Virus record (IMG/VR): IMGVR_UViG_3300037461_001229
Span: 1 to 64,000 of that record
DNA length: 64,000 nt
Direction: 5' to 3' (one strand)
Source of the DNA: a virus
Lineage: Duplodnaviria; Heunggongvirae; Uroviricota; Caudoviricetes
Part shown: piece by piece, positions 4,203 through 53,518 of the stretch
Layout: each line of letters begins with the position of its first letter
How positions within the stretch are numbered: position 1 is the stretch's first letter
The notes under the pieces: generated by a model
Database searches by the model: none
Told to the model about the DNA's origin: nothing
What the model saw: only the letters and a program-made list of their open reading frames with translations
Translations under genes and position numbers: made by a program

Positions 4203-5054
4203 TTAAATTATTCTTATCCAGCGTAGTGTTGCCCCAGCCTTGGCCGTGATAGCGGAAGACAGGACTTCCGAGGCAAACCTTGCTGTAACTGTACCATCTT
4301 GGGACGGCTTAATAATCCCCCACATTGTTGCCACATTACCAGCAGTGAGCGATGTCGCATTGGCCCCCGATGGTGTATCATACGCCGTTACCGAGTTCAC
4401 TGTAGTAGTAGTTGCTGTAAGCGTGTATTCACTCCTCATATTAAGAAGTGTTGGTGCTGCCGGGCCGTTAATAGCCCATCTCGAGCCCGTTGTTGTTGCT
4501 GCTGATGTATAAGGAATGACAAACTCAAACCAATAAGTTTGATCTGCTGTAACAGCAAAACTAAGTCCTGTAACATCAGCTATTGTATTAGCAGTACCAT
4601 TATTATTAACAACATCTCCCGAGAGGACTACCATATTAAGGGTATTAATTACAGGGGGAGCTATATTAGTAGTGGATGATGTCTTTAGCCGGCCATAGAC
4701 ATCATTAGACACAAAACCAGAGTCATCAGTATACTGGACTGACTCTCCTGTAGCAATAGTGCCTTTCCATAGGATATACTCGGTGCCATTAGCATCAAGC
4801 TTAATGGTTATTGTTGCGTTAGCAGTATCGGCATTATAGACCGAGAGAAAATCCACCACCCTCTGTGTGGAAGCCCCGGGGCTGCCAACTATATCCACGT
4901 CGGTAGTGTTATTGGTATTAACCAGCGTCCTCCCTGGTACATAGGTGGTGGTTGTCACGTCTCTCCATGAGGACATGCACTGCAGTTGATTGGCGGTGAC
5001 TGATCCACCAAGAACTACTTGTATTTTGTCTGTTGATTCTGAAAGTACTATCAT
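4203..5054 (-). CDS. Ser/Thr/Asn-rich fibre-like structural protein (tail fibre / receptor-binding candidate)
   Basis: 283 aa, very T/S/N/G/V-rich low-complexity beta-rich composition typical of fibre tips. Confidence 0.4.
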   Translation of the reverse strand: MIVLSESTDKIQVVLGGSVTANQLQCMSSWRDVTTTTYVPGRTLVNTNNTTDVDIVGSPGASTQRVVDFLSVYNADTANATITIKLDANGTEYILWKGTIATGESVQYTDDSGFVSNDVYGRLKTSSTTNIAPPVINTLNMVVLSGDVVNNNGTANTIADVTGLSFAVTADQTYWFEFVIPYTSAATTTGSRWAINGPAAPTLLNMRSEYTLTATTTTVNSVTAYDTPSGANATSLTAGNVATMWGIIKPSQDGTVTARFASEVLSSAITAKAGATLRWIRII

Positions 5055-7590: not shown

Positions 7591-8213
7591 CGATTATTTT
7601 TAAAATATTTTTCAGTATGAGGATAAAGCTCTCCCAAACCCCTTGCAGGGCTAGCCAACCCCGGTATGGATCAGAGTGAAATGCCCCTTAACTGTAACTT
7701 TCCACAGAGCAGACTCGCTTCCCTTCAGTTCCTGACTACTGCTTTTATACTCACACCCTTGGTGCTTTGTCTTCTTTTGCAAGGCGTGACGAACACGCAT
7801 GATTCGCACCTCAGATTCCTGTCCACTACATTACTCTTTTATTGGGGAAGAGAACAAGTAATAAGAAACCCCACTTCGAGTTGGTTGATGGAAATAGAAC
7901 CCAATGCAAGTCGAGCGCAACACAACCCTCCGTGGGGCATTTATTTTAATGTTACTATTATCAAGAATCTCTTGCATCGGTTTTCAATTTCCAATGCAAA
8001 GATAAACATTATTTTTTATATATTTTATTAGCTAATTCACTGGTTGAAATCTCCACTTCCACCCCGTTATGAGACAAAGAGCAAGGTATTCCATTTTCGG
8101 CAGAGAATGCGATGCAGCTATTTATGCAATCGAATACATCAGCTCCGGCTTCAGCTATAAATTCAACTTTCTTTATTCTAGTGTGTCTTGTCCTTGTTTC
8201 CATAATTATAAAT

Positions 8214-8783
8214 TTATTTTTGCCTTTCTTTAGCGATCTTCCATAGCTCAGATATCTTATCTTCCCGGAGCTTACATACAGTTTTAAAACCAGTCATGGT
8301 CTTGGAATTATTCCGTTGGAACTCTTGCAGGCGCAGGCTCTCATCCAGTAACTCCAGCCATATTCTGTACTGAAGTTTACTATCACTCTTCCAATAGGCG
8401 TTATAGACACGGTTGAGCATAGCTGAGAAGTCAGCAGCCATTTCCTTGGTAAAGAGCAGCCATACCTCTCCTAGCTTTATACGTTGGCGCAGTATCTCCA
8501 CCGCCTCGTCCTCCCCACTAAAGGTAAGAGTACGCTTATAAAAATACATAGTATCCAAGTCCCATCCCCTGTACTCCTTAAGGTAATATTTATCCTCAGC
8601 CAGATAAAGGTATGTCATTGCCGGGATTACCTCAAGATTCTCAGCTAACATAGCCGTTTTCTTGCCCTGGAGCCTAAAAAAGCACAAAGGTGACGGGCAT
8701 TTGACCGGAGCATACCCGTCCTCCCGGGCATCATCCAGACTCAAATACCAGCTAAAAGTATCGTTTTGGAGTAGTTTTGACAT
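8214..8783 (-). CDS. hypothetical protein
   Basis: 189-aa ORF, aromatic-rich, no motif recognised. Confidence 0.3.
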   Translation of the reverse strand: MSKLLQNDTFSWYLSLDDAREDGYAPVKCPSPLCFFRLQGKKTAMLAENLEVIPAMTYLYLAEDKYYLKEYRGWDLDTMYFYKRTLTFSGEDEAVEILRQRIKLGEVWLLFTKEMAADFSAMLNRVYNAYWKSDSKLQYRIWLELLDESLRLQEFQRNNSKTMTGFKTVCKLREDKISELWKIAKERQK

Positions 8784-30972: not shown

Positions 30973-31071
30973 CTCTTTGTGTATTAGTTAAACATAATCA
31001 CATTAATAATTAGCTATGAGCGACCCCCCGAAGGGAGGGGCGGCCTTTCACCGCCCAGACCTTGCGCTACG

Positions 31072-31371
31072 TTATTTTTCATCGGCCTCAACAATCTTAT
31101 ACTTTTTGAGAAGCAAATTATTCCACGTGTCTACGGTGAAACCATCGCCATACCTAACCACCCAATCCCTTGTAATTTTCCTCTCAGTCTCAGACTCCAC
31201 GAGGTCTATAATATCATTCTCATCCCCGTCAAAGCTTGCATCAATAACAATATTCCTATTAGCAACATGACCTATTGCCAATATAGAGTTACAAACTCTC
31301 TTTTCTCTCCGTTCATCAGAATAGATAATAAAATTCTCAAGATTAATCCACATAAAGGTTAAAGTTTCCAT
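31072..31371 (-). CDS. hypothetical protein
   Basis: 99-aa acidic ORF. Confidence 0.25.
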   Translation of the reverse strand: METLTFMWINLENFIIYSDERREKRVCNSILAIGHVANRNIVIDASFDGDENDIIDLVESETERKITRDWVVRYGDGFTVDTWNNLLLKKYKIVEADEK

Positions 31372-33811: not shown

Positions 33812-34121
33812 CTAGAGCGTCTTTAAAGTATTCCTCTATTACATTAACCAGTTTGTCTTCTGGGGCATCAAGATAACTTCCCCCGGTATTAAGGTTTGTT
33901 ATTATGTGCCTTGCCAGGCGTTGAGCTCTTACAGACATATCTGAGAGACAGGACTTATAGCCGAGGTTAAACTTATTTTCGTCATAACTATCAAGGAGAT
34001 ACTCTATGGCATCCATCAAATCATCAAAATGACCTTTCTTGATGCCCTTGATTGCTTTCTTTGTTATTTTTCTCATAATAATATTTTCAGCAAATATAAA
34101 AGGAATAAATGAGAAAAGCAA
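33801..34121 (-). CDS. hypothetical protein
   Basis: 106-aa ORF. Confidence 0.25.
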   Translation of the reverse strand: MLFSFIPFIFAENIIMRKITKKAIKGIKKGHFDDLMDAIEYLLDSYDENKFNLGYKSCLSDMSVRAQRLARHIITNLNTGGSYLDAPEDKLVNVIEEYFKDALDAE

Positions 34122-34658
34122 GAAAAATCTCAGAAAAATGCATAGTATGGGAATACCGTTCAGAAAATCAGCATGTTCAAGTTACGTGAATATAAGTTAA
34201 ATTTGAACACCTTAGCCGGTCATAAAGAAAAAGGTTCTCTTCAAATCGCTTTCTCAGCTCTGGGTGAGTAGCTACACTCCCCCCACCCCCTCATTTCTGA
34301 AGGTCTACTCACCCGTCGCCTCGTCGCTTCATCTCATCAAACCACGGCCTATATCGTCAGACTATCCACGATAACATACCCACCTTGGATCGGCTATGCC
34401 ATTACCCCTACCTTGGCGGCGTAGGGTTGATAATAAATTACTATGGGGGGCTATAAAATAACGTGGGGGTGCATTTGGTAGTTCCGATAATTGGAAACGA
34501 AGGTTGGAAACCTTCTCTTGAGCACCCCCCGCTATTATATTCTTCGACAAATCTAATCATAAATTTCCAATTATCAAAGCAAATCTACCAGAATTTCTGC
34601 AAAGATAAACATTATTTTTTAATATCCAAATTTATTTGGATAATTTACAAATTGTAAT

Positions 34659-34666
34659 TAACTTTG
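34659..34666 (+). promoter_or_regulatory. Bacteroidota -7 element upstream of pdxH
   Basis: taactttg. Confidence 0.4.
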
Positions 34667-34672
34667 ACGCAA

Positions 34673-35257
34673 ATGATAAAGAATCCATTTACAAGATTTA
34701 AGGTCTGGTATAACTTAAGAACTAAGACCTATAGCGGGGATGCATCATATATGATCCTATCCACTGCTGATTCTTCCGGCGATGTGTCATCCAGGGTGGT
34801 ACTACTGAAATCATTTGACGAGGATGGTTTTGTCTTCTACACCAACTATAATAGTAAGAAAGGAAGGCATCTTGATGATAACCCAAGGGCAGCGCTGCTG
34901 TTCTATTGGCCCGAGCTGGATAAGCAGATACGTATAGAAGGGGATGTTGAGCGGGTACCGGAGGATGTCTCTAATGATTATTTTACCACCAGACCCAGGA
35001 TAAGTAAGGTTGGTGCTCATGCCTCAAGACAAAGCAAGGTATTAAGCAGCAGAATCAGGCTTATTTTCAGGGTGGCAAGATATATATTTAAATACCCCAG
35101 GGAGGTTCCGAGGCCGTTACACTGGGGTGGCTACCGGCTAAAGCCCAATATGTTTGAGTTCTGGGATAACGGCAAATATAGACTACATGACAGAACCCGC
35201 TATAGGCTCAAGGTTGGCTCAGTGGGATCGTGGGTTATTGAAAAACTTTATCCTTAA
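34673..35257 (+). CDS. pdxH: pyridoxamine 5'-phosphate oxidase
   Basis: RVVLLKSFDEDGFVFYTNYNSKKG...NPRAALLFYWPELDKQIRIEG...FEFWDNGKYRLHDRTRYR...WVIEKLYP aligns along the full length with bacterial PdxH including the C-terminal FW..G...RLHDR block; start moved from TTG 34664 to ATG 34673. Confidence 0.85.
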   Translation: MIKNPFTRFKVWYNLRTKTYSGDASYMILSTADSSGDVSSRVVLLKSFDEDGFVFYTNYNSKKGRHLDDNPRAALLFYWPELDKQIRIEGDVERVPEDVSNDYFTTRPRISKVGAHASRQSKVLSSRIRLIFRVARYIFKYPREVPRPLHWGGYRLKPNMFEFWDNGKYRLHDRTRYRLKVGSVGSWVIEKLYP

Positions 35258-35315
35258 ACATTTGGAAATATCAAAAACAATTCTTATCTTTGTTTTTGAA
35301 TTGAATTATTAATAT

Positions 35316-35540
35316 TTTGCCCCCGCCACGGGAGATTTTGCCAACGAGTGTGGCCTGGATAAGTCGATATCAACGCTTCTGGCGGGGGTTTGAAAGTTCT
35401 TCGAAATGATGATATTGTCTCTAAAACCCCCAAGAGGGCGACCTGTCGTGGGCCGATAAGTAATGTAGGAGACCCCCGGGAGGGTATTGCCAGGTTCAGT
35501 TTCGGTAACGGGGCTGTTTTTCGGATACCCGCCCATCACC
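35316..35540 (+). ncRNA. GC-rich structured RNA-like region of unknown identity
   Basis: GC content far above flanks; competing helices cccccgcca(35320-28)/tggcggggg(35380-88) and gggggttt(35384-91)/aaaccccc(35424-31); spurious antisense ORF 35309..35539 is typical of an RNA gene. Confidence 0.25.
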
Positions 35541-35612
35541 GTGGCAGAGTGAAACGGATAATCATCAAAGACTCATAATCTTTGGATAGTGGGTTCGACT
35601 CCCATTGCCGCA
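35541..35612 (+). tRNA. tRNA-like element with CAT anticodon (Met/Ile2-like); imperfect, possibly pseudo-tRNA or att remnant
   Basis: manual cloverleaf: acceptor gtggcag/ttgccgc (2 GU), D stem gtga/tcat, perfect anticodon stem aaaga/tcttt with loop CTCATAA, T loop TTCGACT but only 4-bp T stem. Confidence 0.3.
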
Positions 35613-36247
35613 ACAAGGGCTAGCGTCCGTCAGAGTCGCATAGCGTCTCGAGGGCCGGAAGGTACAATGGTCGTGCGCCCTTTTTAAAATGTCACGTTTT
35701 CGCCGGCAAAAACGTGACAAATTGATAATAATTAATAATTAAATATAAAATGGCATTTATCCCATTATTGGTATTGTACTACATGGATAGTGAGGAGGAG
35801 ATAGAAAGAAAATCCAATCTTGGCCAGGAGCCCAGAATGGAAGAGGGGGAGATACGTATAAACACCATGCATATATGTTCTTATAATGAGACCGATAAGA
35901 GTCATGTGATATGCCGCATGACTAATGGAGATATACTTGAGCTCCCAATGCCGGTAGAGACATTCGAGGCGTTATTAGCCCAGTCTGAGGTGATATTGAA
36001 TTTTTCGGAGTTAAGCGATAATTAGTTCTTTATAGGTTGCCCGTAGGCGGGCAGACAGAACAATAACGGTTTGGATTACCGATTCATACTGTTTCTCACG
36101 GGTTTTATTGTTTGACGTGAGGGAATTCGTGAGCCTGCAAGAGAGAGTAAATGCAGTATCCCTACAATACGCGAGACCTTGTAAAGAATAGAAAAGGGGC
36201 AATTAAGCCCCTTTTCTTATTTACAAATTGTAAATTGCATCTATGAA

Positions 36248-37162
36248 TCACCTTGCTGTTGGTGCCATTATTCCCCCCTTGCACTTTAGTGGAGTATCTA
36301 TTTTTCTGGATCGGCATATAGCTCCACAATCCTTACACCTAAATGCAAGATACCTATTGACAGACGTGGTATAATAACCACATTCCTCTATCTCAGTGGA
36401 GCCGCACGTTGGACAACTAGGTTCAATTGCTTCTTGGTATATCGCCATGTTTGGATGTGATTTGATGTACGGTCTTAAAAACACATACGCCTCTTCCGCC
36501 AGAAATACATCCTTCTGGTTATAAACAGACATCTCTTCTAAGGACTTCTGATCACCAGCCATACACCTAAGCCATAAGGCATACTCGGTGTGTATCTTGC
36601 GGTCATTAAGCATAAGTTCCCCTATATAGTCAAGCCTGTTAGATGAGAACCTGAAGTTCTTCTGTGCTACTATAAGGGTATCTATCATCTGGAATGGCGA
36701 TGGAGGGGCTAGCTTATTCATTATAAACCTTGTCTGGGCTTTTGGTACGTCAAATTTGATGATGTTATGGCCTATTAGGATATCCGCCTGGTCAAATAGT
36801 TTCCAAAGCTCCCGGGTGATCCGGCTATCATCTTTAGCTATGGCTTCCTTGGGAGTCAGAACCCCGGAATAGATATTAGGACCAAACAGCCACTTGGCAG
36901 CATAGGACAGCATGTGCCATTCATTTATTATCTGTTCATAGCCTATTCGCTGTTTCCCGGTGTGCCAGGTGTGGGCTTGTAGTGGGGTGACCTCAATATC
37001 TATGATCAGGGCTTTAGGCTGCTTTGTTTCCCAGAACCTCTTACGCCTCTTATATCTTTCCAGGGAATCTTGTCGCAGGTTGAAGTGTTCAAGGGTAGCT
37101 GGCTCGCCGTACTCCTGCAGGTAGGCAAGTACCCGTTCAATGTGTTCAATGGATACTGCCAT
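36248..37162 (-). CDS. DEDD-family 3'-5' exonuclease with C-terminal zinc finger
   Basis: ALIIDIEVTP (Exo I D-x-E), HNIIKFDVP (Exo II), YIGELM (Exo III region), C-terminal CPTCGS...CKDCGAIC. Confidence 0.6.
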   Translation of the reverse strand: MAVSIEHIERVLAYLQEYGEPATLEHFNLRQDSLERYKRRKRFWETKQPKALIIDIEVTPLQAHTWHTGKQRIGYEQIINEWHMLSYAAKWLFGPNIYSGVLTPKEAIAKDDSRITRELWKLFDQADILIGHNIIKFDVPKAQTRFIMNKLAPPSPFQMIDTLIVAQKNFRFSSNRLDYIGELMLNDRKIHTEYALWLRCMAGDQKSLEEMSVYNQKDVFLAEEAYVFLRPYIKSHPNMAIYQEAIEPSCPTCGSTEIEECGYYTTSVNRYLAFRCKDCGAICRSRKIDTPLKCKGGIMAPTAR

Positions 37163-44290: not shown

Positions 44291-44335
44291 TTTCCATAAT
44301 GCACTAAATATGTATCTTTGCAGAAACAAGAAGAC

Positions 44336-46894
44336 ATGGCTCAGAAGAAGAAAGAGACCAAATTATCATTTGAGAAAGATTTACAGGTAGAAGAGGCGAG
44401 CAAGCTTGGCATACGCCCGGAAGAGATCATACGCAACTTTGAGGACGTTGGCCGGCTGCCGGATGATTTTAACCCCTATGGAGGCGGCTATACTATAGCC
44501 AGGTCTAAGTTCTTGGGCGATGAGCCTCCCCATGGCCAGTACTGTGGGGGAGACTTTAAGCTGTGGGAAGTTATTAACGACGGAGACCCGTCACTAACCC
44601 CGGTTTACTTTAGCATGCCCGAGCCGCCGACAGATAGGACATTGATCGATGGCTATGGGCTAGACCCTGATGAGCAGTACTTCCGCCGGATCGAACTACC
44701 GAGGAAATTTCGGTTGATCGAAACCAAGGCCCTACAAGACCTGGCAGAGATCGAGAAGAAGAACCGGCAAGAGACCATACAGGGTTATAAGTTCTATCTT
44801 AAGTTCTGGGAGATAGTAGAACAGGAGAGAGATAACCTGGAGGAGGAGCTTATATGGCTTAAAAGGGTATGGTGGTGGAGAACTTATGGTTATTGGTACT
44901 ATAATGACGGGGAGCCGGTATTCCTACCTCCCGACTATTACGACTTCCTTAATTTCTACTTTATAGAGGAAGCGGTCAGGTACCCGGAGTACCGTGATGA
45001 CGTCAGGCGTAAGTACTGTTACTCACGTTATCTAGAAAGCTGTACTGAGACATTCAAAGATTTCGATGCTAACGGTATGGCCAAGAAGAATGCCGATGGT
45101 AAGTACGAGATGGTTGACCTTGGCCGACGGTTATTCTTCGGGGATGTGGAGCCCAAGACTCGTAGGACGGGGGCCACACACGAGGCCGTCCATAAGATAT
45201 TAAAGGGAGCCATGACCCATCTCTCTTATTTCAGTACCATCATCTCTTTTGAGGGTAATAACGCTGAAGTCCACTATAAAAAGAAGCTCTTGCCGGCTTT
45301 CGATGCTTATCCTATGGTTCTGAAGCCTATATGGGAGGGGAATCGCAGGCCCAATATACTAAGGCTTGATGCGCCGCCCAATGTCTACCACACAAGAGGT
45401 CTTAAAAGTGCCATAGCTTACTCGGACTCAGGGGGGCTGTTCGCTAATGAGGGGGATAGGCTTAATGGGGTGTTAAATGATGAGCAAGGCAAAAGTCTCG
45501 GATCAACAGCAGACATCTTTGAGAGGTGGCACATCAACAAATTCACCATGTCTACGGGTATGGGTATCAACATCCTTAAGGGAGTATATGTCAAGAACCC
45601 AAGTACGGTGGAGGATATGGAATCAACAAGTACGCCGTACCATAAGCTCTGTGAGTTATCTAATTTCTATAGACGGGTACCGGTTAAGGGTCAGACCATG
45701 GAGGGCTTTGCCAGGATATTTTTGCCGGCCTATCTCAGGCTTGAGGGGTATATTGACCGATTTGGTAAGTCAGTGGTGGAGACGCCTACAGAGAGACAGA
45801 TAAGGCTGTCGCCGGATGCGATCTTTGCAGTAAGTAAGAAGGGAGCCAGGGAGACGATGCAGGCAGAGAGAGACGCACTACTTGCACTCAACACGCCTGA
45901 GTCTCTTGAGCTCTACCGTAGTATCCGCAGAAAATCCCCGTTTACCTGGGATGAATGCTGGTTGGGGTCTGCAGGTAATGCCGGCTATAATCTTGAGATT
46001 ATAGATAAGCGCATGGGGGAACTTAACCAGCTTAAGTCCTTTGGTAAGATGCCTTATCGTGTGGGTTATTTTTATCGGGACACCTATCCTGATGGGACAG
46101 TGCTCTGGAAAGACGATCCTAATGACATACGGTTCAGGATATCGATGATTCTCCCGCCGGAACTATCTAATCAGAGGGAGATGATCGAGGTATGGGATGG
46201 TCTTAACCAGAAGTTTATCCCGGGATGGCGCCCAAGGAATGGGCAGCGGTTCACTCTCGGGTGCGACCCCTTCCGAAACCTTAAGGCTATAGAGGTTAAA
46301 TCAATGAGCAAGGCGGGTATGAGGTCGAGCACGTCACGGCAGTCCGATGGTGGTATCGCTGTACTATGGGAGTATGACCCCGCTATAGATGGCAACAAAC
46401 CTAAAAAAGACTGGGATAGCTTTAAATTCGTTTGTACATACAGGCATAGGCCATTAACACAAGAAGCGTATTTCGATGATGTACTGATGTGTGCCCAGTA
46501 TTTCGGAGCTATGATCTATCCTGAGCAGAACGTGGAAGCATTCCTCGTGCACCTCTATAAGAGAGGTTATGGAGGCTATGGTCTGCATGACTTTGATATT
46601 ATGACCGGTAGGCCCAAGGCGCTTCCCGGGAGGTATAACGCTACTGAGACTAATCAGGATATGGTTCGTGAGATCAAGGATTATATTGAGTTTAGGGGGC
46701 ATGTCGAAGATCACGATGACCTGCTAGCAGAAATTAAGTCGTTCAGGGGCGTTGAGGACTTTACCAGGCTTGACCTTAAGACTGCTGCCGGTATGGCACT
46801 ACTTGGCTCTAAGTCCCGCCATAGGGAGATATTAGGAGATAATAAAAGTATTGGGCTAGATTTGGACGATATCTTCCCGGTGAGATATTATTGA
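44336..46894 (+). CDS. terL: putative terminase large subunit
   Basis: position immediately upstream of portal-scaffold-capsid block; deviant P-loop-like PKTRRTGAT; nuclease-like LGCDPF / EYDPA Asp motifs in C-terminal half; start moved to ATG 44336 downstream of -7 box 44313-44320. Confidence 0.5.
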   Translation: MAQKKKETKLSFEKDLQVEEASKLGIRPEEIIRNFEDVGRLPDDFNPYGGGYTIARSKFLGDEPPHGQYCGGDFKLWEVINDGDPSLTPVYFSMPEPPTDRTLIDGYGLDPDEQYFRRIELPRKFRLIETKALQDLAEIEKKNRQETIQGYKFYLKFWEIVEQERDNLEEELIWLKRVWWWRTYGYWYYNDGEPVFLPPDYYDFLNFYFIEEAVRYPEYRDDVRRKYCYSRYLESCTETFKDFDANGMAKKNADGKYEMVDLGRRLFFGDVEPKTRRTGATHEAVHKILKGAMTHLSYFSTIISFEGNNAEVHYKKKLLPAFDAYPMVLKPIWEGNRRPNILRLDAPPNVYHTRGLKSAIAYSDSGGLFANEGDRLNGVLNDEQGKSLGSTADIFERWHINKFTMSTGMGINILKGVYVKNPSTVEDMESTSTPYHKLCELSNFYRRVPVKGQTMEGFARIFLPAYLRLEGYIDRFGKSVVETPTERQIRLSPDAIFAVSKKGARETMQAERDALLALNTPESLELYRSIRRKSPFTWDECWLGSAGNAGYNLEIIDKRMGELNQLKSFGKMPYRVGYFYRDTYPDGTVLWKDDPNDIRFRISMILPPELSNQREMIEVWDGLNQKFIPGWRPRNGQRFTLGCDPFRNLKAIEVKSMSKAGMRSSTSRQSDGGIAVLWEYDPAIDGNKPKKDWDSFKFVCTYRHRPLTQEAYFDDVLMCAQYFGAMIYPEQNVEAFLVHLYKRGYGGYGLHDFDIMTGRPKALPGRYNATETNQDMVREIKDYIEFRGHVEDHDDLLAEIKSFRGVEDFTRLDLKTAAGMALLGSKSRHREILGDNKSIGLDLDDIFPVRYY

Positions 46895-46923
46895 AAATAT
46901 TTTGTAATATTAAATATTATATT

Positions 46924-46931
46924 TATCTTTG
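46924..46931 (+). promoter_or_regulatory. Bacteroidota sigma-A -7 element TAnnTTTG (tRNA sub-operon 1)
   Basis: tatctttg. Confidence 0.5.
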
Positions 46932-46979
46932 CGTTATGATTAGAATCCAACATATAGAGCAGCCTATAGACTTACTTAC

Positions 46980-47036
46980 GGGGTGAGACAACTCTCTATT
47001 TGAGTATATACCCACCCCATAAGGTGGGTTTTTTAT
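46980..47036 (+). promoter_or_regulatory. attenuator-like leader: antiterminator ggggtg/cacccc versus terminator cccacc-ccataa-ggtggg + T7
   Basis: mutually exclusive helices share segment 47013-47018; terminator T-run abuts first tRNA. Confidence 0.4.
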
Positions 47037-47038
47037 TT

Positions 47039-47448: not shown

Positions 47449-47456
47449 TATCTTTG
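47449..47456 (+). promoter_or_regulatory. Bacteroidota -7 element (tRNA sub-operon 2)
   Basis: tatctttg. Confidence 0.5.
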
Positions 47457-47533
47457 CAGTGTAAAATAAAGTTAATGCAGAGCATAAAGAGAAATATGGT
47501 GAATATTGATCGTACAGGCGCAACCTTACGGAA

Positions 47534-47603
47534 GGGCATTCCCATATGATCTTTTAAGAGATTAGAAGTGGAATGCCCTCAGAGATGGGGGCATTCTTAT
47601 TTT
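47534..47603 (+). promoter_or_regulatory. attenuator-like leader: antiterminator gggcattcc/ggaatgccc versus terminator gaatgccc/gggcattc + TTATTTT
   Basis: 9-bp and 8-bp alternative helices sharing 47571-47578. Confidence 0.45.
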
Positions 47604-48487: not shown

Positions 48488-48495
48488 TATCTTTG
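48488..48495 (+). promoter_or_regulatory. Bacteroidota -7 element (tRNA sub-operon 3)
   Basis: tatctttg. Confidence 0.5.
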
Positions 48496-48548
48496 TGGTA
48501 TGAAAAAACTATGGTGTTCATATAGTTCGTTTTTACTCTTGCTCTCGG

Positions 48549-48620
48549 GGCGAGGTAGTTGAGCTATATCCACTGCAGATATACAAGGAGCCTCGCCTAT
48601 AAAGCGGGGCTTTTTGTTTT
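48549..48620 (+). promoter_or_regulatory. attenuator-like leader: antiterminator ggcgagg/cctcgcc versus terminator gcctcgc-ctataaa-gcggggc + T-run
   Basis: alternative helices share 48590-48597; T-run ends one nt before tRNA. Confidence 0.45.
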
Positions 48621-48947: not shown

Positions 48948-48990
48948 CGGGGGTTTATTAAACTTTTGTTATCTTTGTAAGAAAAAAAAT

Positions 48991-49386
48991 ATGTTTAATA
49001 ATGTAAAGAACACAAAGAAGCAGGGGGATATTGGAATGGGCATGGCAATAGGTTATTTTACTGCCCAGGGATATACGGTATTGATTCCTTTAACCGATAG
49101 TCAGGATTATGATTTGGTTATAGAGAAAAATGGTCTTTTAAAGAAGGTACAGGTAAAGACAACTTCGTATAAGACTCCTAATGGGATATTTAATATCAAT
49201 CTTAGCGTGAAAGGTGGGAATAGGTCTTATAATACCATAAAGAAGTTTAACCCTGATCTTGTTGATTATTTATTTATTTTTACATCTAATGGAGATATGT
49301 ATTTTATCCCATCTCCCCAAAATATTACGAGTCACCTGAATCTCGGTAAAAAATATCAGGACTTTAAAGTATTCATGGATGGTTGA
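48991..49386 (+). CDS. small PD-(D/E)XK-like nuclease candidate embedded in the tRNA array
   Basis: ORF 48889..49386 trimmed to ATG after -7 box 48970-48977; DYDLVIEKNGLLKKVQVKT gives D...E.K-like motif; 3' end overlaps tRNA-Ser by 10 nt. Confidence 0.35.
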   Translation: MFNNVKNTKKQGDIGMGMAIGYFTAQGYTVLIPLTDSQDYDLVIEKNGLLKKVQVKTTSYKTPNGIFNINLSVKGGNRSYNTIKKFNPDLVDYLFIFTSNGDMYFIPSPQNITSHLNLGKKYQDFKVFMDG

Positions 49387-49461
49387 CCGAGAGGTAAGGT
49401 ACAAGTTTGCTAAACTTAGGTTGGGATAAAACCCAGGGGGGATCGTTACCCTCACCCTCCG
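49377..49461 (+). tRNA. tRNA-Ser (GCT), class II
   Basis: acceptor ggatggt/accctcc (one mismatch); loop TTGCTAA; variable-arm stem tggg/ccca; T loop ATCGTTA. Confidence 0.5.
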
Positions 49462-49539: not shown

Positions 49540-49612
49540 GGAGATTAAGCAAATCTGGTGATCGCAGATGCCTGAAGAGCATAAGAGCGTGGATCGTAAC
49601 CACAAATCTCCA
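49540..49612 (+). tRNA. tRNA-Phe (GAA)
   Basis: acceptor ggagatt/aatctcc perfect; loop CTGAAGA; T loop ATCGTAA. Confidence 0.5.
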
Positions 49613-49733: not shown

Positions 49734-52100
49734 ATGATACCTATCATTGACGATTCTTACAAGAATAAGGAGTGGGCGTTTCCCCCACGTGATCAGAATC
49801 CAGCTAATAAAGGAGCGGAATATTGCAGGCAGAATAACCAGGCTATATACAGCCTTTTCTGTCGTAATAAAATGGCGTGGGGAGCGGGTGATCTTCGAAC
49901 ATTCGGGACACTAAGGGATTATTCTAATGGCCGCCAAAGCACAGATCAGTATAAATCGTTTCTATTAAATGATATAAACGACAACGGCACTTCTGTATCT
50001 TTCGACTCATTCGATCAACTACCGCTTTCCCGTGTTGCAAAACGCCAGGGCTGGTACAATATGATTTGGGATAACATTTCCCCGGCTCCGATGATTATGA
50101 ATGCCTTACATGGGCAATTCGATAAGCTTGACTTTGATCTTAACGTAAGTGTTGTTGACCCTGATTCCCGGGCCCTGGAAGAAGAGCAAGCATTCCTTAA
50201 ACTTATAGAGGCACAGAACGCCGAATGGCAGAATAAGATCAAGATGGAGATGGGTATTCCTATTGATGAAGATGTTATGATGCCAAGGTCTAAGGAAGAG
50301 TTAGATATGCTCAAGGCCAAGGATGGGTTTAAGCTTAACGTAGCCCGGGCAATGCAGAAGATACTCAGGCATTCATTTGAGGTCAGCCGGTGGGATAATG
50401 TAGTAAGAAAGAAGCTTATTGATGATCTTATATGTCTTGGCTATTGCGTGGTCAGGGATTTCTATAATGCTGAGACCGGCATGTGGGAATGCGAATATGT
50501 TGATCCAGCCACCTATGTCACACAGGTTTCTAATGAGACGGATTATTCTGACGCCGAGTATGGTGGTCAGTTTATCCTTATGACGATATCAAACCTGAGA
50601 AATAAATTACCTGATGTACCGGAAGAAGAGTTAAAGGCCATGGCCGGTACTATGCTTGGTAATTACGGCAACCCCAAGGAAGACTGGCCCAATCATTACT
50701 CACTACTTGACCCAAGTACCGGTATCTGCAATTATGATGGGTTTAAGGTGCCGGTATTCAAGGCGTGGTGGGTGGATACTGATACTAAGAAAAGGTTATG
50801 GGTTAAGTCCCGCTATGGCAGGGAAAAGATACTTGACATCCCTTATGATTCCGATGAGAAGACTATGGATAAGCTCGCCGGTGGGAGACAGGAGGTACGT
50901 CCGGTATTCATAAGGAATATCCGTGAGTGCTCGTGGGTTATAGGGAAGGATTGGGTGTTCGACTACGGTGTTATAAAGATGGCGTCAAGGGATGGTTACA
51001 AGAAGCCACAGGCTCCCTATCACGTTGAGCAGTTACTTCAGCCGTCCATAATTGAGAGGATACGTTCTATCTTAGACCAGATAGAGATCACCTTCCTCAG
51101 ATACCAGAACTCGCTCGCACAGATGTTTGAGAATGGTATTGCAGTTAACGTCTCGATGTTGGGGAATGTCAACCTCGGTGGTGGGATGCTTAAGCCCGCC
51201 CAGGTTATTAAACTGTACAAACAGACAGGGGTCTTACCGTATCAATATGGTGCCAGCACGGGTCATTATACAGGTGGAGCAGCACTGCCGATCACTCCTA
51301 TCCCCGGGGGTATGCAAACCAGAGTGGAGGAGACCATACGTATGATGGATATGTGGATGCAGCAGATAGAGAGGCATACCGGTATTAACCCGGTGACCCT
51401 TGGGGCTACTCCTGATCCTAATGCGCCCGTTGGTACTACCGAAGCAGCCATGCAGGCAACCGCCAATGTTATTAAACCAATAGCAGATGCATGCTTTGAG
51501 GTTAAGGAAAGCGTGGGTACTTCTATGATGAGAAGAATTCAGATAGGGATACGGAATAGTGAACAGGTACGCAAGAGCTATGGCGGAATAGTCAGCCCTA
51601 TGGATATAGATGCATTAAGGCTTATGGAGTCGGATGGTGTGCAATATGGGCTATCACTTAAGGCCAAGCCGGATACCAGGGCTAAGATGCGGTTCGAGAA
51701 GTGGATCGACATTGCCCTGCAGAATACTCGTGAGAAGAGGCCGGGTATTGATCTTAATGATGCTATATACTTCATGTCAAGACTTGAGGCTGGTGATGAC
51801 CTTAATGACCTTGAAAAACAGCTTGAGTACGCGATAGAGAAGAACAAGCAGGAAGCTGCCGCCCAGAGTGAGAGAATGATTCAGGCACAGGGAGAACAGA
51901 ACACACAGCTTGAACAGGCTAAGATGCAATCGGAGATGGCAAGGATCAAGGCAGAAGCAGAAGCCAGTATGGCCGAAGAGGCTCTGCGCGGTCAGATAAA
52001 GGCACAGCAGTCAAGTAAAGAGATAGTAGCACAACTATGGTCTGATTTAAGGCAGACTGCCGATGCTGAAGACGGTATCTTAACACAGACAGGAAGATGA
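49734..52100 (+). CDS. putative portal protein
   Basis: 788 aa, position between terminase and scaffold/capsid, C-terminal Ala/Glu/Gln-rich coiled-coil tail. Confidence 0.5.
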   Translation: MIPIIDDSYKNKEWAFPPRDQNPANKGAEYCRQNNQAIYSLFCRNKMAWGAGDLRTFGTLRDYSNGRQSTDQYKSFLLNDINDNGTSVSFDSFDQLPLSRVAKRQGWYNMIWDNISPAPMIMNALHGQFDKLDFDLNVSVVDPDSRALEEEQAFLKLIEAQNAEWQNKIKMEMGIPIDEDVMMPRSKEELDMLKAKDGFKLNVARAMQKILRHSFEVSRWDNVVRKKLIDDLICLGYCVVRDFYNAETGMWECEYVDPATYVTQVSNETDYSDAEYGGQFILMTISNLRNKLPDVPEEELKAMAGTMLGNYGNPKEDWPNHYSLLDPSTGICNYDGFKVPVFKAWWVDTDTKKRLWVKSRYGREKILDIPYDSDEKTMDKLAGGRQEVRPVFIRNIRECSWVIGKDWVFDYGVIKMASRDGYKKPQAPYHVEQLLQPSIIERIRSILDQIEITFLRYQNSLAQMFENGIAVNVSMLGNVNLGGGMLKPAQVIKLYKQTGVLPYQYGASTGHYTGGAALPITPIPGGMQTRVEETIRMMDMWMQQIERHTGINPVTLGATPDPNAPVGTTEAAMQATANVIKPIADACFEVKESVGTSMMRRIQIGIRNSEQVRKSYGGIVSPMDIDALRLMESDGVQYGLSLKAKPDTRAKMRFEKWIDIALQNTREKRPGIDLNDAIYFMSRLEAGDDLNDLEKQLEYAIEKNKQEAAAQSERMIQAQGEQNTQLEQAKMQSEMARIKAEAEASMAEEALRGQIKAQQSSKEIVAQLWSDLRQTADAEDGILTQTGR

Positions 52101-52396: not shown

Positions 52397-53518
52397 ATGG
52401 CAGAATTTGAACACATGTCAACGACACCGCCCGAAGAGGTAACTCAGCCGGCGGCAGAAGATAATCAGGCTGCGGCAGCTCCGGTGGAACAGCCAGGTGC
52501 ACAGGCTCCCACTACTGATCCTGCCGAAGCAGAACAGGACACGTTCATTGAAACATTTAATAAAAGGTACGGCACTGCGTACAAGAATGACGAAGAAATT
52601 AAACCAATCTTTGAGTCACCGAAGAAGGTAGCTGAACTCTCAGAGAAGTATAAGGACTACGACACGCTAAAGCAGAGTGCCGAATCATATAAAAAGGAAT
52701 TGGAAGACTTAAGGAATGCCGGTTACTCGGAGTTCCTTTCCAAACCATTGATCCGTAACGCTTATGTAGCGGACAAACTGTTAGAGAAATATCCAGACAG
52801 AGACCCATTTGTATTGCAGGAGATTGCTATGAGTGATGTCGATAAAATGGATGATCTTGATGCAGTTGCCAAGGAGCAGAAGATACGCCTGCCAAAGTTA
52901 GCTTTGTCAGACATAAAAGCTGCTATACTTAGCGAGCTTAATATAGATGCCGAACAGAAACCCGAAGAATGGGATAGCGTGGCAAAGACAAAGTTAGCTA
53001 TAAAGGCTGCAGATGCAAGGGAGAAAATCAAGGACCTTACTAAAGGTATCGAAGTTCCTAAGTTCAAAACTAAGGAGGAGAGACAGCAGGAACAGGCTCA
53101 GTTACTTGCCGAGAGGGAGAAGCTGATAGCCCCTGTAAAAGATAAGTTTGTGGCCTTTGATGAGTATACCAACGGTGATTTTAAGTTTGGAGTCCCGCCA
53201 GAGTTCAAGGAAGAAGCCAAGGCAATGTTCGATGGTATCTTCAAGGACGCTGGGCTCGAAGTTAATGCAGAGAATCTAGCAATAGCTGAAGCACTTAAAA
53301 AGGGGTTATTTTTAGAGAAATACCTCCCGAAGATACTTGAGACAAAGGAGTCCCAGGTAAGAACAGCGCTCCAGCAAAAGACTGATAAGGAATTAAGCAA
53401 CACTGAGTTGCCCAACACCGCAACAGCGACAGATAATCCGGCACAGGAACAAGGGTTACCGGGACTTAGTAAGTTCTTTCAAGACCAAACACAAGGACAA
53501 AGAGCTACTAAACTTTAA
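52397..53518 (+). CDS. putative scaffolding protein
   Basis: 373 aa, highly acidic E/K/A-rich predicted helical protein placed between portal and capsid genes. Confidence 0.5.
   Translation: MAEFEHMSTTPPEEVTQPAAEDNQAAAAPVEQPGAQAPTTDPAEAEQDTFIETFNKRYGTAYKNDEEIKPIFESPKKVAELSEKYKDYDTLKQSAESYKKELEDLRNAGYSEFLSKPLIRNAYVADKLLEKYPDRDPFVLQEIAMSDVDKMDDLDAVAKEQKIRLPKLALSDIKAAILSELNIDAEQKPEEWDSVAKTKLAIKAADAREKIKDLTKGIEVPKFKTKEERQQEQAQLLAEREKLIAPVKDKFVAFDEYTNGDFKFGVPPEFKEEAKAMFDGIFKDAGLEVNAENLAIAEALKKGLFLEKYLPKILETKESQVRTALQQKTDKELSNTELPNTATATDNPAQEQGLPGLSKFFQDQTQGQRATKL

Follow-up and report, generated by a model that had tools for sequence, protein, structure and literature searches.

The DNA analysed here is a window of 64,000 nucleotides (IMG/VR record IMGVR_UViG_3300037461_001229; coordinates are window positions, 1 to 64,000) in which a gene for pyridoxamine/pyridoxine 5′-phosphate oxidase, pdxH, stands in front of a short GC-rich RNA unit that carries a boxA-like leader, a tRNA(CAU) and a small open reading frame (ORF), orf91. 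The window is from a phage of Bacteroidota; its phage nature is judged from its genes for the large terminase subunit (44318-46894) and the portal protein (49734-52100) and from its IMG/VR relatives, which are viral contigs. A 79-kb NCBI contig (GCA_025490955.1, JAOQIC010000012.1) contains the window sequence without a difference. For comparison, 39 related phage loci (7 from IMG/VR and 32 from metagenomes, denoted by L-numbers such as L004) were gathered with the exonuclease gene at 36248-37162 as anchor. The features of the locus are as follows.

34635-34666, + strand: promoter P1 of pdxH, TTTG, 20 nt, TAACTTTG (read from the sequence).
34673-35257, + strand: pdxH, pyridoxamine/pyridoxine 5′-phosphate oxidase, 194 amino acids (Pfam, TIGR00558, PDB alignments).
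35261-35292, + strand: promoter P2 of the RNA unit, TTTG, 20 nt, TATCTTTG (alignment with P1 and relatives).
35319-35389, + strand: leader hairpin, a 10-bp GC stem GCCCCCGCCA / TGGCGGGGGT with a variable 51-nt interior (model R1, covariation).
35395-35417, + strand: boxA-like motif AGTTCTTCGAAA (35395-35406), then conserved GATGATATTG (35408-35417) (relatives, host leaders).
35418-35539, + strand: spacer RNA, lineage-variable, 122 nt (fold, terminator scan).
35540-35613, + strand: tRNA(CAU) with a C1-A72 mismatch, A73, G8, U11:A24 and no encoded CCA (ARAGORN, Rfam, covariation).
35614-35689, + strand: 3′ trailer, branched, closed by AAGGGC (35615-35620) and GCCCTT (35677-35682), then U5 (fold).
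35690-35719, no strand assigned: palindromic hairpin, perfect 11 bp, TGTCACGTTTT..AAAACGTGACA (fold).
35750-36025, + strand: orf91, small conserved ORF, the protein-coding end of the boxA-led unit (homologues in relatives).

The stretch 35316-35690 has a GC content of 52.5% against 42.4% for the window (flanks, 17% and 3%) and lies at the 99.2nd percentile of 375-nt windows. A preliminary description of this DNA, made from the letters alone, had noted this sharp enrichment, correctly, and had taken the region to be structured; the 426-nt stretch as a whole folds no better than its shuffles (z = -0.62). The leader runs in the order Bacteroidota promoter, covarying 71-nt GC hairpin, AGUUCUUCGAAA. 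Its hairpin begins 26 nt after P2, at the position where boxB sits in the leaders of rRNA (rrn) operons, and pairs 35319-35328 with 35380-35389 (fold z = -1.7); a purine-rich linker joins it to the boxA-like motif. The same arrangement, with GTTCTTTGA, GTTCATTGA or GTTCTTTAA as the motif, recurs in L004, L005, L130, L133, L138, L140, L144, L146, L150 and L158. R1, a covariance model built from these leader sequences, scores 71 bits in the window and adds L131 and L161, which brings the element to at least 12 relatives. The leader is conserved and its helix covaries: 84.7% of cells are paired (68.9% in shuffles, 42–66% in slid controls), both sides have changed at seven of the ten pairs, and the covariation score of 0.358 (versus 0.163) was reached by none of 500 shuffles. 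The interior of the hairpin shows no conservation among the relatives. In L144 and L006 a second boxA lies directly before the tRNA, in L144 behind a hairpin of its own.

A strict version of the leader pattern gave no match in IMG/VR, and a known RNA family was rejected for leader, spacer and trailer alike, none of which has an Rfam match. Hidden small proteins were also set aside: the five ORFs of 30–76 amino acids in 35309-35720 have no conserved counterpart (all E > 0.1) and no Pfam match. Among the options first offered for the region, that of a leader RNA holds for its upstream part (promoter, hairpin and boxA); the rrn-like leader itself had been overlooked.

Bacteroidota rRNA operons were fetched by the 5′ end of 16S, and the comparison used 100 leaders that extend 350 nt or more upstream. 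The motif G[TC]TC[TA]TT.A occurs in 70 of these leaders, mostly 85–200 nt before 16S, against a chance rate that we estimate at ∼ 0.006 per leader. TAnnTTTG lies within 120 nt upstream in 46 of the 70 (median distance, 47 nt), with a structured interval from promoter to boxA (mean z = -2.8). The host leaders thus read promoter, hairpin, A-rich linker, boxA and AAnnATTG; the phage leaders have the same order, with a much longer hairpin. Compared with the host form GTTC[TA]TT[GA]A, the window motif GTTCTTCGA has one deviation, whereas the relatives match exactly, and G2, C5 and U6, the boxA nucleotides read by NusB (PMC3177189), are retained. When a position weight matrix built from the host-leader sites was applied to the window, the boxA came out as the second-best of 128,000 positions; it is first or second in most relatives. 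The phage leader therefore matches the host rrn boxA in both its core and its arrangement. In rrn operons boxB precedes boxA, the reverse of the order in lambda, and boxA is the essential part and sufficient (PMC8632103). It also occurs upstream of untranslated arrays other than rRNA and protects CRISPR arrays, including those of Bacteroidetes (PMC7665894). Within the library searched in full text, no paper was found to connect boxA with tRNAs that phages encode.

The spacer that separates boxA from the tRNA in the window is no more stable than its shuffles (z = +0.2), has no Rfam match and shows weak similarity, at its ends only, to the spacer of L133/L156. At 35497-35521 the terminator scan located a terminator-like hairpin followed by a U-run; the stem ends 24 nt and the U-run 19 nt before the tRNA. 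In the relatives, the slot after boxA is empty (L005, L131), filled at once by a tRNA (L130, L138, L146) or occupied by RNAs of 115–330 nt. Four such structured RNAs lie between boxA and the CAU tRNA on the − strand of their loci (L004 3760-3917, L140 2277-2448, L144 4406-4715, L150 1699-1939). Those of L004 and L140 form a ∼ 190-nt type with the ends UGGCGAU...AUCGCCA and those of L144 and L150 a ∼ 300-nt type that starts with GGGG(G/A)(C/U)GAAUGACG; neither type has an Rfam match.

The trailer behind the tRNA folds with z = -2.2, a value equalled by 2 of 200 shuffles. Theta ribozymes, which resemble that of hepatitis delta virus (HDV), lie 3′ of phage tRNAs (PMC10879173). An HDV-like ribozyme was rejected here, as our own approximate descriptor of the nested double pseudoknot (P1, P2, P3, P1.1, P4), placed to begin at most a few nt from the 3′ end of the tRNA, gave no match in the window and the trailers of 13 relatives against 3 in 280 shuffles, and no HDV family of Rfam was found in 34100-35800 at E values up to 10. 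The large RNAs GOLLD and ROOL were likewise rejected (no match at the Rfam gathering score in the window, none at E up to 10 in 34100-35800). The terminator-like hairpin first placed at 35687-35719 is a real 11-bp hairpin (z = -3.1; none of 200 shuffles folds as well) but not a canonical + strand terminator, as a U-run is absent behind it on that strand. It was dismissed as a repeated operator, as it occurs once in the window; an 89% identical copy of TGTCACGTTTT..AAAACGTGACA is present elsewhere in L006 (3323-3359). Homologues of orf91 follow the leader or the tRNA in the relatives. In L140, L144 and L146 their ATG is 20–45 nt behind the tRNA and no hairpin intervenes; in L005 it comes directly after boxA. 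Because the start of orf91 is so close behind the tRNA or boxA in these loci, we infer that the transcription unit spans the whole distance from the promoter to orf91.

The cloverleaf-like CAT element first noticed at 35541-35612 is a complete tRNA. ARAGORN calls a tRNA-Met(CAT) at exactly these positions, and the Rfam tRNA model RF00005 scores 43.4 bits on 35540-35613 (gathering score 29), covering model positions 1–71 of 71. The anticodon stem is AAAGA/UCUUU, 5 bp, and the loop CUCAUAA. A CAU tRNA is found at this place too, upstream of orf91 homologues, in L006, L133, L135, L136, L151 and L156 according to ARAGORN and, by Rfam, additionally in L004, L130, L138, L140, L144 and L150; L138 and L146 have an extra tRNA-Thr. 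The closest database matches are tRNA-Met genes of Lactobacillus Herelleviridae phages (82–86% identity over 72 nt), with 86% identity between the window tRNA and tRNA-Met of Levilactobacillus phage ENFP1. Thirteen sequences, 11 of the CAU set and the two closest database matches, both from Lactobacillus phages, were aligned as a family. In its cloverleaf, 91–93% of cells are paired compared with 70% in shuffles and 36–47% in slid controls, and 62 cells have changes on both sides, a count that none of 500 shuffles reaches. The D, anticodon and T helices are 97–100% paired, with double changes at 14 of 21 pairs.

These data bear on whether the CAU element could be a piece of a host tRNA at an integration site, as the preliminary description had suggested (att remnant), or a decaying pseudo-tRNA, with the GC-rich flanks as functionless remnants. 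G8, the 1:72 mismatch and the missing CCA would fit such decay, as would the bulged acceptor stem or degenerate T-loop of some relatives, several of which ARAGORN missed. Against this, the tRNA is full-length and above the Rfam threshold, all four helices covary across the 13 sequences, and the relatives keep counterparts at this place, behind a strong promoter. An encoded CCA is also absent from 19 of the 21 tRNAs that ARAGORN calls in the main array of the phage (22 by Rfam), and the nearest matches are phage tRNA-Met genes. With a promoter of its own and with pdxH, orf91 and the exonuclease gene as neighbours, the element was rejected as a fragment on the evidence of the phage loci, host genomes not being part of this comparison, and we regard decay or a host origin as highly improbable.

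Eight of the CAU tRNAs (L136, L006, L150, L156, L004, L144, L130 and L138) carry an additional unpaired base on the 3′ side of the acceptor stem, with G:C at 7:66, and in L130 and L138 the T-loop is the non-standard UGCAAGU. The sequence CAAGG after the tRNA was considered as a conserved signal and dropped, being shared with L006 only and otherwise due to chance. A search of IMG/VR with the pattern CTCATAA..GGTTCGANTCC..CAAGG was uninformative, with at least 119 loci, nearly all of them ordinary tRNA-Met genes in which CCA and AGG meet by chance.

Numbered in the Rfam register, the tRNA of the window carries C1-A72, A73, G2:C71, U3-G70, G4:C69, G8 and U11:A24. The identity elements of initiator tRNAs have been described (PMC8576571); the lack of Watson-Crick pairing at 1:72 is one that the window tRNA shares through C1-A72. 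Across the 13 sequences, position 1:72 is a mismatch in eight, A:U or U:A in four and G-U in one, and G:C or C:G in none. G2:C71, G4:C69, A73 and G30:C40 are invariant in the family and A11:U24 occurs in 10 of 13. Among the formylation determinants G2:C71, C3:G70, G4:C69 and A73, the window has U3-G70 in place of the second and keeps the others, with U11:A24 in the D stem. Judging from these positions, we describe the window tRNA as initiator-like rather than as a canonical tRNA-fMet, because it carries the 1:72 mark but only one of the three G:C pairs of the initiator anticodon stem. Since its acceptor end bears the marks of bacterial initiators, it most likely serves as an initiator-type tRNA-Met of the phage, with a non-canonical anticodon stem. 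The option of a functional phage tRNA-Met, offered at first, is right in part. A tRNA-Ile2, the other function suggested at first, is unlikely. The main array already holds a tRNA-Ile(UAU) and another CAU tRNA, with encoded CCA, so that an Ile2 role is unnecessary, and the acceptor stem has G4:C69 and G5:C68, whereas E. coli TilS uses C4:G69 and C5:G68. The family, with its initiator-like acceptor and one or two of the three G:C pairs, is a natural test of which initiator features are dispensable.

The product of pdxH has 194 amino acids when counted from the ATG; in the mechanical ORF list the frame begins at TTG 34664. It contains the Pfam domains PNPOx_N (PF01243, 7e-23), the N-terminal split barrel that binds flavin mononucleotide (FMN), and PNP_phzG_C (PF10590, 5e-16), the C-terminal region for dimerisation, and scores 223.3 bits against the NCBIfam pdxH equivalog TIGR00558 (cut-off 180) over model positions 1–190 of 190, whereas the PhzG model stays under its own cut-off (143 versus 270). 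Residues 4–194 align with 30–218 of the E. coli enzyme structure 1g76, and the motifs RVVLLK, FYTNYxSxKG, YFxxRPRxS and RLHDR are kept between PdxH and the human enzyme (1nrg). By family match, this is a full-length, intact pyridoxamine/pyridoxine 5′-phosphate oxidase, as described earlier, with a predicted activity of FMN-dependent conversion of the 5′-phosphates of pyridoxine and pyridoxamine to pyridoxal 5′-phosphate.

None of the 39 related loci has pdxH, while the flanking genes (orf104, the exonuclease gene, orf91, orf106 and the gene for a 152-amino-acid protein) are found there. P1 (TTTG 34635-34638, TAACTTTG 34659-34666) and P2 (TTTG 35261-35264, TATCTTTG 35285-35292), which follow the Bacteroidota promoter consensus, each align with the single leader promoter of L133, L138, L140 and L146. 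On this alignment they are two copies of one ancestral promoter that flank pdxH. In addition, the 480 nt 5′ of pdxH (34190-34672) have a homologous counterpart in L133, where it lies immediately upstream of the leader hairpin. Since it is missing from all related loci and flanked by the two promoter copies, pdxH is a lineage-specific inserted cargo gene at the head of an older transcription unit. This agrees with the preliminary description, in which pdxH was cargo with a Bacteroidota-type promoter and not a host flank; P1 had been seen there and the second copy missed. The pdxH ATG lies only 6 nt past the -7 box of P1, so the mRNA is probably leaderless or nearly so.

The closest PdxH homologues are 50–56% identical. 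At the two closest-homologue loci that were inspected, the neighbours are genes for glycogen phosphorylase, GcvH, methylmalonyl-CoA mutase and a protein with a type IX secretion sorting tail, and such a position among cellular genes points to a Bacteroidota-like cellular origin of pdxH. Among 50,697 phage records only 7 contain a pdxH of any kind, and PdxH falls into no PHROG family. Searches of IMG/VR with PdxH and with the 152-amino-acid neighbour retrieved no relatives. A look-up of the 197-amino-acid form of the ORF gave no match, and the 194-amino-acid form and orf91 matched the source contig only. The gene had been placed between single-stranded DNA-binding protein (SSB)/early genes and a DEDD exonuclease. 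The exonuclease is supported (PHROG 403, 'DNA polymerase exonuclease subunit'), but the SSB is not, as the 152-amino-acid ORF so named has no Pfam and no PHROG match.

We consider the following to be the best explanation of the locus, and hold it with moderate confidence: pdxH is a cargo gene in front of an older, boxA-led tRNA unit that would use host Nus antitermination to express an initiator-type tRNA. PdxH would top up pyridoxal 5′-phosphate during infection. The older unit would consist of a strong Bacteroidota promoter, the GC hairpin, the boxA-like motif, a structured spacer, tRNA(CAU), the trailer and orf91. Host NusB-S10 would bind boxA on the nascent RNA, NusA, NusG and SuhB would join, and RNA polymerase would be converted to a termination-resistant, RNA-chaperoning form. 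The modified polymerase would pass the terminator-like hairpin at 35497-35521 and the hairpins of the trailer and reach orf91, and the tRNA would be released by host RNase P, 3′ trimming and the CCA-adding enzyme. The identities of the genes, the fold of the tRNA, the conserved and covarying leader and its likeness to the rrn boxA and its arrangement are results of the comparison; binding of Nus factors, antitermination, co-transcription of orf91 and the initiator role are predictions from sequence.

Several observations weigh against this explanation. The best matrix match in the window is not boxA but coding sequence at 52543, and a 9-nt motif can arise by chance. The one deviation of the window boxA falls on position 8 (GTTCTTCGA versus GTTCTTTGA), which is T in 70 of 70 host sites. 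R1 gave one marginal match among the 100 host rrn loci, which means that the phage hairpin was not copied from a host leader and that phage and host have no more in common than the 9-nt core and the order of the elements; the helix counts, moreover, come from a model-fitted alignment of related sequences. For the tRNA, the three initiator G:C pairs are represented in the window by A:U, G:C and A:U, with only G30:C40 invariant in the family, and the window has G8 in place of the near-universal U8 and, in place of A11:U24, U11:A24. A positive GC skew marks the RNA as G-rich and so as a poor substrate for Rho, and protection from Rho is then less needed. In L005 and L131 the leader directly precedes orf91 without RNA cargo and may therefore serve orf91 in another way. 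Finally, the large tRNA array of the window phage has no boxA. It is because of the G-rich RNA, the cargo-free leaders and the array that our confidence is no more than moderate.

The failure of R1 to find host leaders, the better matrix match in coding sequence and the shortness of the motif would also be expected if the hairpin and its GTTCTT motif were a phage-specific element unrelated to Nus, such as a 5′ stabiliser, an attenuator or terminator, or a site for a phage protein, with the likeness to boxA due to chance or to AU-rich composition. The phage hairpins, at 65–72 nt, are far above those of host leaders, and in L146 and L158 the stem is followed by five or six U, as in an intrinsic terminator. 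This U-run is absent in most relatives (L004, L130, L138, L140, L144), though, and the host variants GTTCTTTGA and GTTCATTGA recur in the phages at a fixed place after the hairpin and the purine-rich linker. The second copies right before the tRNA in L144 and L006 are placed as in rrn spacers. We therefore think a phage-specific element unlikely.

The arrangement in L005 and L131, where boxA lies ∼ 25–40 nt before the orf91 start with nothing between, raises a different alternative: boxA could be real without being antiterminating. The Nus complex might repress orf91, as for E. coli suhB, or the leader might soak up NusB/S10 and so weaken host rRNA synthesis. Repression by Nus factors at a boxA in a 5′ untranslated region (UTR) is known (PMC5725501), and a single small ORF, with a convergent gene facing it, closes the unit, leaving no distant genes to be reached. 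Most relatives, however, have 100–600 nt of structured untranslated RNA between boxA and orf91, and this speaks for antitermination, because rRNA operons and CRISPR arrays use it in just that situation (PMC7665894); terminator-like structures also lie within the window unit. We rate repression or titration as quite improbable. The preferred explanation thus remains that of a boxA-led unit in which host antitermination would carry transcription across structured RNA to orf91.

A broader idea can be put forward tentatively, as one possibility among others. The lineage may keep a 'stable-RNA expression slot', in which a host-type promoter and an rrn-mimicking leader would recruit the antitermination and RNA-chaperone machinery without an N-like protein, with structured RNAs swapped in and out and pdxH inserted in front. 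The contents of the slot would be the initiator-like CAU tRNAs, many with the one-base acceptor bulge, or RNAs of 115–300 nt. The atypical tRNAs might act as specialised initiators or as substitutes that withstand host defences directed at tRNAs, and the leader could drain Nus factors from host rRNA synthesis.

Other non-coding features of the phage were recorded alongside. In the main tRNA array, three sub-operon starts (46917-47038, 47450-47602 and 48490-48620) each have a TAnnTTTG promoter and a leader of ∼ 100–130 nt that ends in a GC hairpin and a U-run abutting the first tRNA, without boxA; the layout looks like gated or attenuated tRNA expression. Two extra Rfam tRNA matches on the + strand (49377-49461 and 49540-49612; 30.9 and 34.4 bits) were not called by ARAGORN, and a protein-coding ORF (48990-49380, +) lies within the array between tRNA-Tyr and the next tRNA-like match. 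A Twister-sister self-cleaving ribozyme (RF02681) is found at 31006-31072 on the − strand (44.7 bits, gathering score 34). Upstream of P1, a conserved non-coding block, 34190-34560, which we call element A, is homologous over ∼ 370 nt to L133/L135 (nhmmer E 1e-100) and in part to L138, L005 and L144, and has no Rfam match. It contains a long hairpin at ∼ 34254-34306 (GGGTGAGTAG..CTACTCACCC), with compensatory versions in L133, L005 and L144, and a second hairpin at 34466-34530. Its position is downstream of a leftward promoter, kept in all relatives (CAAAGATA, 34600-34607 on the + strand), and it is probably the structured ∼ 450-nt 5′ leader of a leftward operon. Relatives without element A have a hairpin element of ∼ 90 nt (for example, GCCAGCAC..AAATCCAC..GTGG..GTGCTGGC) in the 5′ UTR of the leftward genes (L004 ∼ 4300-4400, L130, L161, L006 ∼ 8180-8270).

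Phage auxiliary genes, phage tRNAs and boxA are each of a known kind. What appears to be new is that a Bacteroidota phage has a hairpin and boxA leader in rrn order at the head of a slot for structured RNAs and, combined with it, a family of initiator-like tRNAs without the three-G:C signature. If our explanation holds, a Bacteroidota phage takes over the host ribosomal antitermination complex through an rrn-like site for the expression of a tRNA and structured RNAs. Such units would join rRNA operons and CRISPR arrays as a third natural class of boxA clients, alongside the lambdoid nut sites, and the leader would offer a simple signature by which to find non-coding RNA cargo in the genomes of phages. 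The position of pdxH between duplicated promoters gives a plain view of how a phage acquires a metabolic gene.

The closest known counterpart of the leader is the nut-like site of rrn operons (boxB, boxA and boxC; NusB-S10, NusA, NusG, SuhB and S4). The two share a promoter-proximal position, a hairpin followed by a linear boxA, a core equal to the motif of 70 of the 100 host leaders, and untranslated structured RNA, including tRNA, downstream; the boxA of rrn spacers resembles the second boxA before the tRNA in L144 and L006. They differ in that the phage unit is ∼ 450 nt with a tRNA and a small ORF instead of rRNA, that its hairpin is much larger and lineage-specific, and that the putative phage site has no defined boxC and, in the window copy, one mismatch. 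With the lambda nut sites and the boxA leaders of CRISPR arrays (PMC7665894) the window phage has in common the putative use of host Nus factors via boxA. In lambda nut, however, the order is reversed (boxA then boxB) and N protein acts, whereas no N-like protein was identified here, the phage hairpin is not a 15-nt boxB, and the host phylum is Bacteroidota. The tRNA resembles bacterial initiator tRNA-fMet in lacking a Watson-Crick 1:72 pair and in A73, G2:C71, G4:C69 and G30:C40, with A11:U24 in 10 of the 13 family members, and differs in the U11:A24, U3-G70 and single G:C pair of the window sequence. It shares G8, the D-arm GUGA AACGGAU, the T-arm and weakness at 1:72 (in theirs a U:A pair) with tRNA-Met of the Lactobacillus Herelleviridae phages ENFP1, SAC12B and 521B, but the window copy has a C-A mismatch at 1:72, and those tRNAs stand in ordinary arrays without a leader and in phages of a different host phylum. 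PdxH, in turn, is like its cellular counterparts in its equivalog-level full-length match to TIGR00558, and pdxH is like phage auxiliary metabolic genes or 'morons' in having its own promoter and an insertion point between conserved phage genes, while the protein is at most 56% identical to any cellular homologue and belongs to no PHROG family.

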